Shown: positions 34,733-55,304 of the stretch, in pieces
Numbering within the stretch: position 1 is the first letter of the stretch
Layout: each line of letters opens with the position of its first letter
Notes under the pieces: generated by a model
The model's database searches: none
What the model was told of the DNA's origin: nothing
The model's input: only the letters and a program-made list of their open reading frames with translations
IMG/VR virus record: IMGVR_UViG_3300047564_002353
Span: 38,000 to 101,999 of that record
Length of the DNA: 64,000 nt
Source: a virus
Reading direction: 5' to 3' (one strand)
Translations under genes and position numbers: made by a program

Positions 34733-34763
34733 ATTGGCTTAAATATCATAAACAGGAGCGAAC

Positions 34764-34985
34764 TTGTTAATTGTAGACTATGATGATTTGGGCATTGCTA
34801 CCTATATGGTATGCAACAATCAAGGAGTGTGCCTTATTAGAACTACCAGTAGTCGTATTGCCAACTACATAGAACGACATGTACATCAAGCACATCCCGA
34901 ACTTAGACTCTTAGTAGGAGGGGATCCTGGCAGTCGTACTCCTAAACTGATTTGGCGACACATACGTAAATTCAACACCCGCTAG
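34764..34985 (+). CDS. Hypothetical protein
   Basis: AGGAGCGAAC RBS, TTG start. Confidence 0.6.
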   Translation: MLIVDYDDLGIATYMVCNNQGVCLIRTTSSRIANYIERHVHQAHPELRLLVGGDPGSRTPKLIWRHIRKFNTR

Positions 34986-37837: not shown

Positions 37838-37939
37838 GTATCTAGAAACGGCAGGCACCCTCCACGTCCATCCCCAGACACGCTGTTCGAACCGTTGGAC
37901 CTAGGAGTTGTTGTTTTTGTTCGCTCTCTTAGTGTGTAT

Positions 37940-38040
37940 ATTATAGCATCACTGCTCAAAAAGTCAACCAAAATATCCCTGATTCGCAAAAATACAACAC
38001 TATCTTTTTTGGTTGACAATTACTCTAGTTCGTGTATAAT
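37940..38040. promoter_or_regulatory. Divergent early promoters
   Basis: Minus TTGACT-16-TATAAT with TG extension (37967-37940); plus TTGACA-16-TATAAT with TG extension (from 38013). Confidence 0.8.
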
Positions 38041-40325: not shown

Positions 40326-40389
40326 GGTTGACTTTTCGAGTTCGTGGTGCTATACTATTGAAACTGTGTAAAACAACAAGGAGAGCGAG

Positions 40390-40635
40390 ATGTCAAACTA
40401 TCCAAATATGTCGTACTGTATGTTCGAAAACACTCAACTGGCCATGGATCAGCTGGCTACCTTTCTGCAAGAAGCAGATCAGGATGACATGCTGGACATG
40501 AGTAAGAGCGAGCTTCGTGCAATGCGTGAGCTGGTGGGCTACTGCGAACAGTACCTGCGCTTGGTTGAGGACTTTGACGACCAGCGTCAGCAGATCCTGG
40601 ATGCTTGTGAAGATGACGAAATGGAGGAGTTCTAA
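40390..40635 (+). CDS. Early hypothetical protein
   Basis: NMSYCMFENT motif; own promoter. Confidence 0.75.
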   Translation: MSNYPNMSYCMFENTQLAMDQLATFLQEADQDDMLDMSKSELRAMRELVGYCEQYLRLVEDFDDQRQQILDACEDDEMEEF

Positions 40636-41092: not shown

Positions 41093-41273
41093 TATGTTAA
41101 AAATAGCAATAGGTATGGGCAGCATTGTTATGATGATTGCAACACTGATTACTGCTTTAGTAATAACTAGAATGTGTCTCAGTGCTGCACATCATTTTCT
41201 GCTGAAATAGGTTGACATTTGGGCACAGAGGTGCTATTATATACACACTTAGACAACAACGAAGGAGAGCGAA

Positions 41274-41702
41274 ATGGGTACAAGAGCATTGACGTTTGTT
41301 TATGATGGCGACAAGCCAATCCTCAATCTTTACCGCCAGTATGATGGCTACCCAACTGGGCACGGTGCTGAACTAGCACAATTCCTAGAGGGCTTTACCA
41401 TTGTCAACGGTATTGGTCGCGAGACTACCCGTGTGGCTAATGGCATGGGCTGCTTGGCTGCACAGGTTGTAGCACACTTCAAAGACAGCGTGGGCGGATT
41501 TTATATCCACAGCGTTGACAGTAAGGAGTGCGGTCAGGACTACGAGTACCATGTGTACCAAAAGGACAAGGAGCTGCGTGTTCGCATTACGGATCGTGGC
41601 TGCAATATGTTTGGGCTTACAATCAGTGACACTAACGCCAGCATCTTTGACGGCTCTGTTGCAGAGTTTGTAATGTTCTGCTCTGAGCCACAAGCGGCAT
41701 AA
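41274..41702 (+). CDS. Early hypothetical protein (MGTR...Y..YDGYP type)
   Basis: Own promoter, GAGAGCGAA RBS. Confidence 0.75.
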   Translation: MGTRALTFVYDGDKPILNLYRQYDGYPTGHGAELAQFLEGFTIVNGIGRETTRVANGMGCLAAQVVAHFKDSVGGFYIHSVDSKECGQDYEYHVYQKDKELRVRITDRGCNMFGLTISDTNASIFDGSVAEFVMFCSEPQAA

Positions 41703-43168: not shown

Positions 43169-43522
43169 ATGGCAACTGATAAAACTTATACCGTAGCTGG
43201 TACTTCTAAACACAATGGTGGCTTCAAAGTTCGTTTCGCTAACGATTTGATGCGTACCAAGAACCTGACCAAGTCTGGTCACACTGATATTGTTTTGGTT
43301 GAGCTGCCCAAGGCCATGCTCAAGATTGATGCTGTGAACTATATTGCAACTCTTGATGAGTTCAGCAATGTTGGTTCTAAGTCAGCTATCATGGACTATC
43401 TGGATCGCAATGATGCAGAGCCTAAAGCTAAGGCAGGCCCCGCTGCTAAGGCCCCTACTAAGGCCAAGGCACCAGCTAAGGCCAAGGCTGCTGAGACTGT
43501 AGACGAAGACGCACCCTTTTAA
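43169..43522 (+). CDS. Small protein with Lys/Ala-rich tail, putative DNA-binding
   Basis: KVRFAND..R.K.L.K.GH.DI.L.ELP; AKAPAKAK tail. Confidence 0.7.
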   Translation: MATDKTYTVAGTSKHNGGFKVRFANDLMRTKNLTKSGHTDIVLVELPKAMLKIDAVNYIATLDEFSNVGSKSAIMDYLDRNDAEPKAKAGPAAKAPTKAKAPAKAKAAETVDEDAPF

Positions 43523-43535
43523 TCGCGTGTGAGGC

Positions 43536-43582
43536 CTCCGTATCGTATAAATAATTTCACTATGCGATACGGAGTTTCTTTT
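43536..43582 (+). promoter_or_regulatory. Hairpin containing the late promoter TATAAATA and sequestering ATG 43562
   Basis: ctccgtatcgtata/tatgcgatacggag 14-bp stem (one G-U pair), followed by tttcttttt. Confidence 0.7.
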
Positions 43583-44495: not shown

Positions 44496-44565
44496 TTTTG
44501 GTTGACAAAGTGTGTATAGTGTGCTACTATACACACACTTAAACAAAACACATAGGAGCGAAACT

Positions 44566-44745
44566 ATGCAAACAACTAAACAACAACTATTTGCTAAATT
44601 AGCAGAAGTGCAAGACCTGCTACATAACAGCACTTGCGACAGCGAAACTTTTGCACAAAGCTTGCAAGCTGACATAGGCTGGGCTGCGGAGCTGGACATT
44701 GCACTGCGTACACTTACAGACAATATAGATTATTACGTGGACTAA
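44566..44745 (+). CDS. Small early protein
   Basis: Promoter 44502, AGGAGCGAAACTATG. Confidence 0.75.
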   Translation: MQTTKQQLFAKLAEVQDLLHNSTCDSETFAQSLQADIGWAAELDIALRTLTDNIDYYVD

Positions 44746-44807
44746 AAACGGTTGACAAAGTGTGTGTACTGTGCTATTATACACACACTAACACATAGGA
44801 GCGAGAA

Positions 44808-46153: not shown

Positions 46154-46194
46154 CTGTATAATATACACATACACTAACAAAACAGGAGCGAACT

Positions 46195-46446
46195 ATGTTT
46201 AAATTAGATGAGCCGCGTGAAGTACATTTCCAAGGCAAAACGTACACTACATGGCACGGTAGCCCATTTGACCGTGGCAGTGCAGACAGCTGGTACAGCC
46301 GCAGTGCTAAACCACACTGGTACCCCGAAGGCACTGGGCGTGGTGAGATTGTAACAGAAGAGCGCATGAGCTTGGCGGAAATTGAAGCATACTTCGCTGG
46401 CTATGACCACAATGAGCGGTTTGGTGGTAAGAAGAGCTGGGACTGA
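46195..46446 (+). CDS. Early protein (HG.PFDRG.AD.WY type)
   Basis: Promoter 46134, AGGAGCGAACTATG. Confidence 0.75.
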   Translation: MFKLDEPREVHFQGKTYTTWHGSPFDRGSADSWYSRSAKPHWYPEGTGRGEIVTEERMSLAEIEAYFAGYDHNERFGGKKSWD

Positions 46447-47312: not shown

Positions 47313-47775
47313 ACCCTACTATCGTGTATCAATGAACCGCAAACGTCAGATCATTGATGCCACCCTAGACGAGTTGCATACCTTGCAACTGGATATGATT
47401 GACCAAGCAGTAGAGTATTCTGATCTACAAGAAGCCAAGGAATTGATCGACTGGATCCGTAAGCTATGACAGTATCAACAGTTGACTGTGTTGCTATTAT
47501 TGCAATACTGCTGGTTCTGGCAGTGGGCTTGATCCTTGCTGGTTACGAATTAGCACATCTACTCATAGGCTGATATGTGGCTGCTTCTAACTATAGTATT
47601 AATCAATGGCGTACCAGACTTCATGGTCCTTGCAAAAACTACAACAATGACTGAATGCTTGAACTTGCTGAAAAAACAACCCAAGGATCCTAGTATGCAT
47701 TGTATCTACGCGAATTCGGTTGACAAATAGCCCTAGTTTTGCTATACTGTTGAAACTGTAAACAAGGAGCGAACT

Positions 47776-48114
47776 ATGTTGCTAGTCATTCAAACCCAAA
47801 ACCAAGAAAACTACGGCGCACACGACTGGGACGGCCGTGGCGAGTGCCCACAGTACTGGAAGTTCAAGGGCGGTAACGAAATCAAGGTCCAGGGCGTAGA
47901 AGTGGGCATGGACTACCAGCAGATCGTAGAAAGCCTGCGTGGCCAAATCGAAGAAAACACCAACTTCTACCGCGTGTCAATCATAGGCTACAGTGTAGAA
48001 GCTGACAGCTACCTCAGCTGGTTCGAGCAGAGCCAACTGGACTACGATGGCGAGATTCTGTTCAAAGAACCTGTGATTGAATATCAAAAAACGGTTGACA
48101 AACTGGCTGTTTGA
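47776..48114 (+). CDS. Early protein (ENYGAHDWDG...YWKFKGG type)
   Basis: Promoter 47720, AGGAGCGAACTATG. Confidence 0.75.
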   Translation: MLLVIQTQNQENYGAHDWDGRGECPQYWKFKGGNEIKVQGVEVGMDYQQIVESLRGQIEENTNFYRVSIIGYSVEADSYLSWFEQSQLDYDGEILFKEPVIEYQKTVDKLAV

Positions 48115-48344: not shown

Positions 48345-48662
48345 TGGGCAAGTTCTTCTTAGGCGTACTGGTCACCCTGGCTATTATGTATCCTGTGGCC
48401 ACTAAGCATTACTTTGGTACAGCAGTGGATACAACCAACGCCGTTGTAAAACATACACTGGAAAAACCCATTGACAAATAAACAAAAAGACTGTATTATA
48501 CACACACTAACTGAACGGAGCGAACTATGTATTCTAAATTTATTATCCGACTGCTGGACGCGATCCCAACGCCTACTCCAGAGCAGGGCGACCGTGCAGT
48601 AAACTTGACCCTGGCTTTTGTAGCAGGATTTATTGTGGCAATGTTGGCTTTTGGAGGTTAAT

Positions 48663-48881
48663 ATGATGACTTACGAACAAGCAATTCAAACTGTGGCACA
48701 GGCACGTGAAGACTTTATGAATCGCCGCCCTACACTGGCCTACGTTCCAGAAACTAGCATCGCACTGTTCTACGGTAAGGACGTTGAACTGGTGCAGCTG
48801 GACTTGCTCATGGCACAACGAGCAATTGAAGCAGCAGAAAGCGTACCCAATTTCCTGCGTAAGGACTTGACAGCAGCATAA
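48663..48881 (+). CDS. Small early protein
   Basis: GGAGG RBS. Confidence 0.6.
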   Translation: MMTYEQAIQTVAQAREDFMNRRPTLAYVPETSIALFYGKDVELVQLDLLMAQRAIEAAESVPNFLRKDLTAA

Positions 48882-48960
48882 ACATCAGTTATAATATCGA
48901 CTACACACTAGCAATAGTGTGTAGCAATATTCTAACTAACACAGAGCGAAAGAGCGAACT

Positions 48961-49782
48961 ATGATGAATTTGGAAATCCCCAAGCTGGGCAAAAAGGCAG
49001 CAGAAACTAACGAACAGATCAAACAGCGTCTGCGTGATCGTTTTGAAATACTTAACGATATGACTCGTGCTGTTAAGAAGGGCGATGTACGTGCTATGAT
49101 CGTCACAGGCCCACCAGGCGTAGGCAAAAGCTTTGGCATTGAAGAAGTCTTGGGCAAGCACGACTTGATGGCGAACATTGCTAACAACACCAAGCTCAAG
49201 AAGTACGAAGTGGTCAAAGGTGCTATGAGTGCGTTGGGCTTGTATGCTAAACTCTACGAGTACAAAGACCCTAAGTCAATCCTAGTGTTCGACGACTGTG
49301 ATAGTGTACTGCAAGACGAACTGAGTCTTAACATTCTCAAGGCAGCACTGGATACATCAAAGAAGCGTATGATCCATTGGAACACAGACAGCCGTCTACT
49401 GCGTGATCAGGGCGCACCAAATAGCTTTGAGTTCAAGGGCGGTGCTATCTTTATCACTAACATTAAGTTTGAGAATGTACGTAGCAAGAAGCTGCGTGAT
49501 CACTTGGAAGCCTTGGAGTCACGCTGCCACTACTTGGATCTTACTATTGATACAGAGCGTGAGAAGATGCTGCGTATCGAACAGATCGTAGAAGATGGTA
49601 TGCTCACAGAGTATGAGTTTAGCACAGAAGAGCAAGCAGAGTTGATTCACTTTATTGACTCTAATAAGAAGAACCTACGCGAACTGTCACTGCGTACAGT
49701 ACTAAAGATAGCGGACTTGCGTCGTAGCTTTCCGCATAAGTGGCAGAGCGTAGCAGAGGTTACCTGTATGCGCCGCGGTTGA
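48961..49782 (+). CDS. AAA+ ATPase
   Basis: Walker A GPPGVGKS, Walker B LVFDDCD, sensor IFITN, Arg finger ALESR. Confidence 0.9.
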   Translation: MMNLEIPKLGKKAAETNEQIKQRLRDRFEILNDMTRAVKKGDVRAMIVTGPPGVGKSFGIEEVLGKHDLMANIANNTKLKKYEVVKGAMSALGLYAKLYEYKDPKSILVFDDCDSVLQDELSLNILKAALDTSKKRMIHWNTDSRLLRDQGAPNSFEFKGGAIFITNIKFENVRSKKLRDHLEALESRCHYLDLTIDTEREKMLRIEQIVEDGMLTEYEFSTEEQAELIHFIDSNKKNLRELSLRTVLKIADLRRSFPHKWQSVAEVTCMRRG

Positions 49783-49872
49783 TTCGCTCCCAACCAGCAT
49801 ACTGAGTAAGGGCCATCGTGGCCCACTTGATCCCCAGATGTCCGATTCGCTCCCGGCTCTGGGGATTTTTTT
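49777..49872 (+). ncRNA. Three-hairpin 3' RNA/terminator with two ATTCGCTCC loops
   Basis: GGTTG-attcgctcc-CAACC; GGGCCA-tcg-TGGCCC; ATCCCCAGA..CCG-attcgctcc-CGG..TCTGGGGAT followed by a T-run. Confidence 0.65.
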
Positions 49873-54473: not shown

Positions 54474-55256
54474 CTATTTATTGGGTTCGCAGTCTACCCA
54501 TTTTAAATTATTATAATGTTGATAAGGCCAAGATCCTTTAGGTATTACACAGACACCTAGTTCGGGATTATTTTCGATTCTAATTTGTACCACAGCCCAA
54601 ACTAGCCATACAAGGTATAGTATTGCAATAATACTAATGCTCCAGCAGGTTATTTTATATTGTAAGCGTTTTCTACGACGTCTTGCTGCTTTGGCTTTTA
54701 CCTCATTAGCTCGCATCTCAATAGCCACAGCACCGGCCTGCTCTCTGCCCACTATCTTCATCATTTCTTCAACTTCAGTCCATAGAGCACCTAGTTCTGG
54801 CGGACTTTGGTAGACCATGATTTCGCGTAGTTCTGCGCCCATAGCATCTAATTGTTTTCTTAGTAGAACACGCTGTAGAGCACGTTTACCTACGCTGTCT
54901 TCACCGTGATAAACTTCATATTTGCTGCGTCGTTCTTCTTCATCAAATACAGCTCTGCATTTATAAAGATTATCAAAGTATACGCCTAGTTGCTGTCCAA
55001 TTTCTGTATAGATATTGGTAGTATCACCAGCTTGTTTGTTAAGTTCGATGATGCGATTTTTTTCAGTGATATACTGATTTTTTTCCGCAATAGTAGGAGC
55101 ACGGTCTTTAAACTTGTTATGAAATTGATCGTCAAGGTCTTTGAGAACATCTTTAACGTCCCCAGCAGCACCTTTAATATCTTTATAAAGTTTGCAACCT
55201 TCTTTAACCAGTTTGACTGCGCCGTTGGCCAGGGCAAACAGGGTTAACGGGTCCAC
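54474..55256 (-). CDS. Coiled-coil membrane protein
   Basis: MDPLTL.ALA N-terminus, coiled coil, C-terminal TM. Confidence 0.7.
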   Translation of the reverse strand: MDPLTLFALANGAVKLVKEGCKLYKDIKGAAGDVKDVLKDLDDQFHNKFKDRAPTIAEKNQYITEKNRIIELNKQAGDTTNIYTEIGQQLGVYFDNLYKCRAVFDEEERRSKYEVYHGEDSVGKRALQRVLLRKQLDAMGAELREIMVYQSPPELGALWTEVEEMMKIVGREQAGAVAIEMRANEVKAKAARRRRKRLQYKITCWSISIIAILYLVWLVWAVVQIRIENNPELGVCVIPKGSWPYQHYNNLKWVDCEPNK

Positions 55257-55304
55257 GGCCCTCGCTCCTGCATATTTCGCTCCAAATTGTTCGCTCAGTA
55301 ATAT

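Follow-up and report, generated by a model that had tools for sequence, protein, structure and literature searches.

The ATPase transcription unit and the tagged ribosome binding sites

A gene for an AAA+ ATPase lies on the plus strand of the window, the 64,000-nucleotide stretch of viral DNA analyzed here, between a consensus promoter and three closely spaced hairpins. The features of this transcription unit are:

48867..48895, plus strand: promoter of the ATPase transcription unit, sigma-70 consensus TTGACA-17-TATAAT (12/12 match)
48944..48958, plus strand: ribosome binding site (RBS) region of the ATPase gene, with tandem GAGCGAA (48944 and 48952), each a 7-nt complement of the hairpin loop
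48961..49782, plus strand: AAA+ ATPase gene, 273 aa, phrog_1250, T4 nrdC.10-like, carrying the hairpin element in its 3' UTR
49777..49795, plus strand: hairpin 1, 5-bp stem GGTTG/CAACC, loop ATTCGCTCC at 49782-49790 (from sequence and fold)
49810..49824, plus strand: middle spacer hairpin GGGCCA/TCG/TGGCCC, variable in sequence among relatives
49830..49872, plus strand: hairpin 3, an intrinsic terminator, loop ATTCGCTCC at 49845-49853 (from sequence, fold and covariance model)

Hairpin 1 overlaps the TGA stop codon of the ATPase gene (49780-49782). Hairpin 3 is built of a 9-bp outer stem (49830-38 with 49858-66) and an inner CCG/CGG helix, and runs into a stretch of U residues (49866-49872); this combination of G+C-rich stem and U-run, characteristic of intrinsic (Rho-independent) terminators, is likewise present in 54 unique relatives. 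The sequence-only reading had described three hairpins and a U-run after the ATPase gene, the first and third with unrelated stems and an identical 9-nt loop, ATTCGCTCC, and both the sequence and the fold agree with it. The 3' UTR folds with a minimum free energy of -42.6 kcal/mol (z = -2.8), and the two loops have predicted unpaired probabilities of 0.92 and 0.97. Exactly two copies of the 11-mer GATTCGCTCCC are found in the window. Hairpin 3 scores 45.5 bits (E = 1.8e-7) with CM R1, a covariance model of the terminator hairpin. Rfam gave no family match at the gathering threshold and only noise at E <= 10, a literature search by sequence returned primers only, and the ATPase has no PDB relative by sequence.

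The source record, IMGVR_UViG_3300047564_002353, is 102 kb long and ~29% complete (CheckV), so that "genome-wide" counts in the window phage span 102 kb only. It is probably a fragment of a jumbo phage with a genome of ~350 kb, and no sign of lysogeny was found within the 102 kb. The sequencing runs that contain the window DNA are freshwater or lake metagenome DNA only. The nearest cultured relatives are the PA5oct-like Pseudomonas jumbo phages, at ~50% amino-acid identity.

The region upstream of the ATPase gene is rich in promoters: ~17 near-consensus sigma-70 promoters are found on the plus strand within 11 kb (38.0-48.9 kb), with few terminators. Since no strong terminator is present from ~45.5 kb until the one at 49.87 kb, at least seven nested transcripts are expected to end at 49866-49872. 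No internal promoter was found in the window near the 3' end of the ATPase unit, and a separate 3' RNA would therefore need processing.

The complement of the loop, GGAGCGAA(T), stands before several early start codons. It occurs 9 times in the window versus 0.68 expected, and none of 100 shuffles reached 9. The sites listed in the sequence-only reading were all confirmed, as were the tandem GAGCGAA boxes of the ATPase gene itself. The tagged RBSs are:

34755..34762, plus strand: GGAGCGAA, TTG start, outside the main cluster; gene 34764-34985
40383..40389, plus strand: partial tag GAGCGAG (GGAGAGCGAG); gene 40390-40635
41267..41273, plus strand: partial tag GAGCGAA (GGAGAGCGAA); gene 41274-41702
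44555..44562, plus strand: GGAGCGAA; gene 44566-44745
44798..44805, plus strand: tag variant GGAGCGAG (GAGCGAG at 44799); ATG at ~44809
46185..46192, plus strand: GGAGCGAA; gene 46195-46446
47766..47773, plus strand: GGAGCGAA; gene 47776-48114
48517..48524, plus strand: GGAGCGAA; gene 48527-48661

The five plus-strand copies of GGAGCGAA and the GAGCGA variants each lie 2-5 nt before the start codon. Searches of PHROG and Pfam gave no function for the tagged small genes. The window phage is less uniform than its relatives: only ~6-9 of its ~30 module genes carry GAGCGA or GGAGCGA, and most have AGGAGC followed by other bases, a 5-nt match to the loop.

Two minus-strand sites also carry related sequences. 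The leader at 55256-55301, outside the early cluster and belonging to a 260-aa gene (54474-55256), has three GAGCGA boxes and a short uORF (GGAGCGAAATATG...), and might be an extra target of the loops. The stretch 37920-37967 holds a divergent promoter, TTGACT-16-TATAAT, and after it GAGAGCGAAC, which leads to no start codon; a separate item of the sequence-only reading took this as a possible decoy for the loops.

Loops and tags in related phages

The comparison set consisted of 80 IMG/VR loci (466 kb) in which the ATPase is 73-91% identical to that of the window. Nearly all of these loci have GATTCGCTCCC at 0-200 nt past the ATPase stop codon. The loop core is confined to this place: all 160 sense-strand copies of TCGCTCC are downstream of the ATPase stop, 157 of the 160 within 204 nt, and none among the 80 loci is upstream of or inside the ATPase gene, although the upstream depletion as such (0 observed versus 3.3 expected) is not significant. 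Relatives usually have two copies, one near or overlapping the stop codon (the first copies are 2-100 nt after it) and one at the tip of an intrinsic terminator. The terminator copy has a 7-15-bp stem, a 5' bulge that often reads xUAAxx, the motif CCG-AUUCGCUCC-CGG and a U-run.

The stems vary around a constant loop. The 7-nt core TCGCTCC is invariant in 72 unique 23-mers, as it is over about 130 non-redundant related IMG/VR loci. In the 72 instances, both bases have changed at each of the three closing pairs (from G-C to A-U, for instance, at the closing pair), and 95.8% of the cells are paired. For the outer terminator stem, an ungapped alignment of 24 hairpins revealed compensatory changes in 10 of 10 pairs and 96.5% of cells paired, compared with 30-54% in slid controls; choosing the 24 rows by shared register raises the paired percentage but does not affect the covariation. 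Invariant loops with covarying stems, a pattern that the sequence-only reading had named as a check on itself, are thus what the relatives display. Two further elements of the terminator hairpin are also invariant, the CCG/CGG inner helix and a TAA in the 5' bulge (24/24 aligned relatives; columns 15-17 of alignment A2); hairpin 3 of the window has TGT at the place of the TAA. Seed pairing needs neither element, and they point to a possible further partner, for example a protein. The idea that the conserved UAA closes a small ORF was rejected: in one relative read by hand (L003) it is out of frame with the ATPase, and it is absent from the window hairpin.

The element appears to be a single-locus feature. 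Five records of 185-383 kb have about one loop pair per genome each, and their remaining matches to the 11-mer are tagged RBSs read on the opposite strand. CM R1 found no match other than behind the ATPase. In bacterial genomes, a search for the hairpin core plus TAA gave 23 matches, approximately the chance level and one of them a mis-binned 2.8-kb phage contig, and the element is therefore taken not to be chromosomal; the matches give no pointer to a host. An exact 15-mer scan of viral contigs gave many matches without ATPase in high-GC surroundings, which are due to chance; only those with hairpin context were kept. Cultured phages gave no match in a DNA search with the whole locus, and chance matches only with the hairpin; at the homologous locus of PA5oct (50% aa) neither tag nor loop was found.

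The tag is as localized as the loop. Upstream of the ATPase gene in the relatives, 272 sense-strand copies of GGAGCGA are found, and 267 of them have, at a distance of 2-10 nt, a start codon that opens a reading frame of 30 aa or more. On the downstream side, 209 kb contain only 19. Counted over unique TIRs with a crude gene caller, the tag is on 107 of 282 upstream genes and 39 of 53 ATPase genes, on 11 of 192 downstream plus-strand genes, and on none of 177 downstream minus-strand genes. The tagged RBSs have the consensus A(89%)-GGAGCGA(100%, by selection)-A(69%) and are set in A/C-rich leaders, ~20 nt downstream of a -10 box. The CGA(A) extension fills the spacer between the Shine-Dalgarno (SD) sequence and the start codon and is not expected to pair with the canonical anti-SD. 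The variable 5' positions of the loop (A, U) are opposite variable positions of the RBS, and the invariant cores are opposite each other. In complete relatives, the tagged cluster covers ~10 kb and ~10-15 genes directly before the ATPase gene, and the tag is rare elsewhere; in a complete 383-kb relative, for example, 9 of the 17 matches to GGAGCGA fall within the 11 kb that precede the ATPase gene (87.6-98.1 kb), and the two loops follow at 99.09 and 99.16 kb. The regulon envisaged earlier, early genes at large, is thereby reduced to this cluster beside the ATPase gene.

The ATPase gene of the relatives also has a counterpart of the consensus promoter, and its tag is usually a single GGAGCGA. 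In L001 (GGAGCTGA) and in L045, L069 and L076 (AAGGAAC), the ATPase RBS is without the tag, and all four keep the loops. The element is also found in other gene contexts. In a "far" clade (65-70% ATPase identity), the ATPase gene and a single motif hairpin have three small untagged genes between them; on the 3' side of the hairpin come a distinct terminator and, after it, another promoter with its tagged RBS. In eight relatives (L090, L122, L133, L141, L149, L175, L182 and L200), a CCG-ATTCGCTCC-CGG hairpin lies 3-6 nt past the TAA of a gene for a conserved early protein of ~100 aa (MATDKKF...KKNP; no PHROG match) whose own RBS is untagged; after this hairpin come a distinct terminator and then the next GGTTGACA promoter. 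The window homologue of this gene (43169-43522, plus strand) has no motif hairpin and is followed by a different one at 43536-43582.

A matched change of tag and loop was found when ATPase loci at 62-70% identity were added by profile search and the commonest 7-mers before start codons were compared, without bias, with the 3' region. One lineage has the RBS tag GAGGGCA(A), and its post-ATPase hairpins, at the stop codon and in the terminator, have the loop TGCCCTC. Among 129 non-redundant loci, the first tag occurs with the first loop in 88 (plus 2 with both loops) and with the second loop alone in none; the second tag occurs with the second loop in 5 and with the first in none. The ATPase RBS carries GAGGGCA in all five loci of this lineage examined in detail. 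The seven true second-loop loci form one clade on the ATPase tree (SH-aLRT 99) and so represent one evolutionary event, a multi-nucleotide matched change in both partners, which gives no statistics across events. Lineages with RBSs of the AGGAGCA, GGAGCAC or GGAGAAA type have no complementary loops within 4 kb. These RBSs belong to a clade made up of L245, L251, L270, L274, L279, L282, L284-L289 and L292; in many of its members, the start of the next gene coincides with the ATPase stop or is a few nt away from it, as an ATGA overlap or an ATG just behind TAA.

Proposed pairing mechanism and alternatives

Base pairing between the loops and the tagged RBSs is well supported by these comparisons. 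The predicted duplex of the loop with GGAGCGAAC has an energy of -12.9 kcal/mol, versus -7.6 for the same RBS with the canonical anti-SD; for the RBS at 44555..44562 of the window the values are -14.1 and -6.5 kcal/mol. The UUCG in the loop is a YUNR-type U-turn, as in fast-pairing antisense loops. Weighing against this reading are the size of the loop, 9 nt, in which 8-9 pairs could not all form without strain, the small share of module genes with the tag in the window phage, the single event behind the matched change, the conserved helix and UAA that pairing does not need, and the AGGAGCA-type clade, which has no matching loops within 4 kb. Like the seed of a 3'UTR-derived sRNA, the loop core is conserved and has more than one complementary target. 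No reading other than pairing accounts together for the exact complementarity, the matching conservation, the adjacency of element and cluster, and the switch of both partners in the sister clade. Very probably, then, tag and loop base-pair to control early translation. Of the earlier proposal that the loops pair with an early-gene RBS extension, the pairing itself has gained from the invariant loops and the matched change, and the tagged set has proved smaller than claimed.

The mechanism that we propose on these grounds has the following steps. The 3' UTR of the ATPase operon presents one sequence in two open loops, at the stop codon and at the terminator tip. The 3' eight nt of the loop, UUCGCUCC, would pair with a private SD extension, (A)GGAGCGA(A), that marks the RBSs of the promoter-rich early cluster upstream and, in most relatives, of the ATPase gene itself. 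Pairing would hide both the SD and the spacer and thereby keep the 30S subunit off. As the terminator-protected 3' end, probably common in the window to the nested transcripts from at least seven promoters, accumulates, translation of the tagged genes would drop. Pairing in vivo, repression, and an action that is mainly in trans as a 3' fragment and not only in cis are what we infer. On balance we think it probable that this conserved structured 3'UTR element pairs with tagged RBSs and represses them, mainly in trans as a 3' fragment. More tentatively, tag and loops may amount, in a family of freshwater jumbo phages, to an RNA "address code", in which a private SD extension marks the early block and the two-loop 3'UTR RNA reads the tag and lowers the expression of the block. 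It might also time the switch from early to late genes, the timing role supposed in the sequence-only reading.

The element could instead act in cis only, the loops folding onto the RBS of the ATPase mRNA itself so as to block translation and/or create an RNase III site. Such an arrangement has a precedent in icaR (PMC3868564). It is suggested by the genetic linkage of the element to the 3' end of the ATPase operon, by the gene's own consensus promoter, by an RBS that is tagged in 39 of 53 unique relatives and in all second-tag loci examined, and by the two GAGCGAA boxes of the window, which are as many as the loops. However, the loops are fully kept in L001, L045, L069 and L076, where the ATPase RBS is untagged, which argues for targets beyond the ATPase's own mRNA. 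Furthermore, three untagged genes separate the ATPase gene from the hairpin in the "far" class, the same hairpin is found behind the untagged ~100-aa gene, and 10-15 neighbouring genes share a tag that a private cis loop would not need. We therefore regard exclusive action in cis as unlikely.

The evidence for pairing would fit equally well if its effect were positive: the tagged SD might be protected against 5'-end-dependent decay or against a nuclease that cuts GGAG as RegB does, or the ends of the mRNA might be brought together, so that tagged mRNAs persist longer or are re-initiated. The position of hairpin 1 at the stop codon in both loop classes would bring terminating ribosomes near the paired RBS. 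Covering an SD normally blocks initiation, though, and no RegB or RegA family member was found by Pfam in the 102-kb fragment, which is weak evidence because the fragment is ~29% of the genome. A protective role is, in our judgement, rather improbable.

Still less probable is a hairpin that binds a protein (the ATPase or another early protein) or modulates termination, through antitermination or processing, and whose complementarity to RBSs is incidental. The invariant CCG/CGG helix and UAA bulge do suggest recognition by shape plus sequence, dimeric RNA-binding proteins typically have two identical loops as their site, and the element is always at the end of an operon or in a terminator. But an invariant 9-nt loop would contain the complement of the cluster's specific 7-mer by chance with a probability of ~1e-4, and the coincidence would have to recur in the sister clade, whose sequence pair is another one.

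Host RNA such as 16S rRNA is a very improbable target: GGGGAGCGAACAGG (a 9-nt match) and GGAGCGAAC occur in helix 24 of the 16S rRNA of many bacteria, the latter as a conserved stretch, with which the loops could in principle pair, but the tag is concentrated beside the element, and the sister clade switched its loops to TGCCCTC along with its own RBS tag, which a conserved rRNA target would not permit.

Relation to known systems and significance

The architecture of the element is closest to that of the cuckoo/CcsR1-4 (alpha-r14) sRNAs of Alphaproteobacteria, which consist of 2-4 adjacent hairpins with variable stems and the same C-rich, anti-SD-type loop, and which are processed from a 3' UTR (PMC4615179; PMC8034643). 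The phage element, too, has adjacent hairpins with variable stems and identical loops. However, the cuckoo loop, CCUCCUCCC, is a generic anti-SD, whereas the phage loops, AUUCGCUCC or UGCCCUC, match a private RBS extension. The cuckoo RNAs are chromosomal, lie in the 3' UTR of a DUF1127 gene and are matured by RNase E; the phage element lies behind an AAA+ ATPase gene, its last hairpin is itself the terminator, and its presumed targets are the neighbouring genes.

For the cis variant, the closest system is the icaR mRNA of Staphylococcus aureus, in which a UCCCCUG of the 3' UTR pairs with the mRNA's own SD, blocks initiation and yields an RNase III substrate (PMC3868564). The likeness lies in the ATPase RBS, which usually carries a tag complementary to the loops of its own 3' UTR: such complementarity is present in the window (GAGCGAA twice) and in the 39 of 53 relatives, and absent in L001, L045, L069 and L076. 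Unlike icaR, the phage element has two loops instead of one, its tag is common to 10-15 other genes, its loops are kept where the gene's own RBS is untagged, and it is known from sequence alone.

A third comparison is the c4 RNA of phages P1 and P7 (Rfam C4), in which sequences exposed in loops base-pair in the RBS region of a target from the same operon, and the matched sequence pairs differ between the two phages (PMC12197685). The c4 RNA is 5' of a single target (icd/ant) in the immunity operon of temperate phages, whereas the jumbo-phage element described here is at a 3' end and could have many targets; the c4 covariance model of Rfam did not match it. By its loop motif, gene context and covariance models, the element thus belongs to none of the three systems. 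What is distinctive is a private, lineage-specific RBS tag with a matched loop in virulent-type jumbo phages.

The timing of gene expression in virulent phages relies on transcription and on proteins such as RegA and RegB. In T4, the nuclease RegB and the repressor RegA allow a selective post-transcriptional shut-off, for which a GGAG in the RBSs of early genes serves. A class-specific RBS sequence is common to T4 and to the system proposed here, but the T4 effectors are proteins and the candidate effector here is an RNA. If the address code is true, it would be an RNA counterpart of RegB/RegA, and an RNA that reads an RBS tag of a gene class would add a new layer to the control of phage expression. 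The pairs GGAGCGA/UCGCUCC and GAGGGCA/UGCCCUC would then be orthogonal between co-infecting relatives, reminiscent of the heteroimmunity of P1 and P7 c4. As two natural orthogonal tag/loop pairs, they amount to ready-made compensatory mutants and might serve as orthogonal translational switches. The element occurs across hundreds of contigs of uncultured lake phages, and it would show that conserved but non-canonical bases in an SD spacer can be the label of an RNA-RNA regulon.
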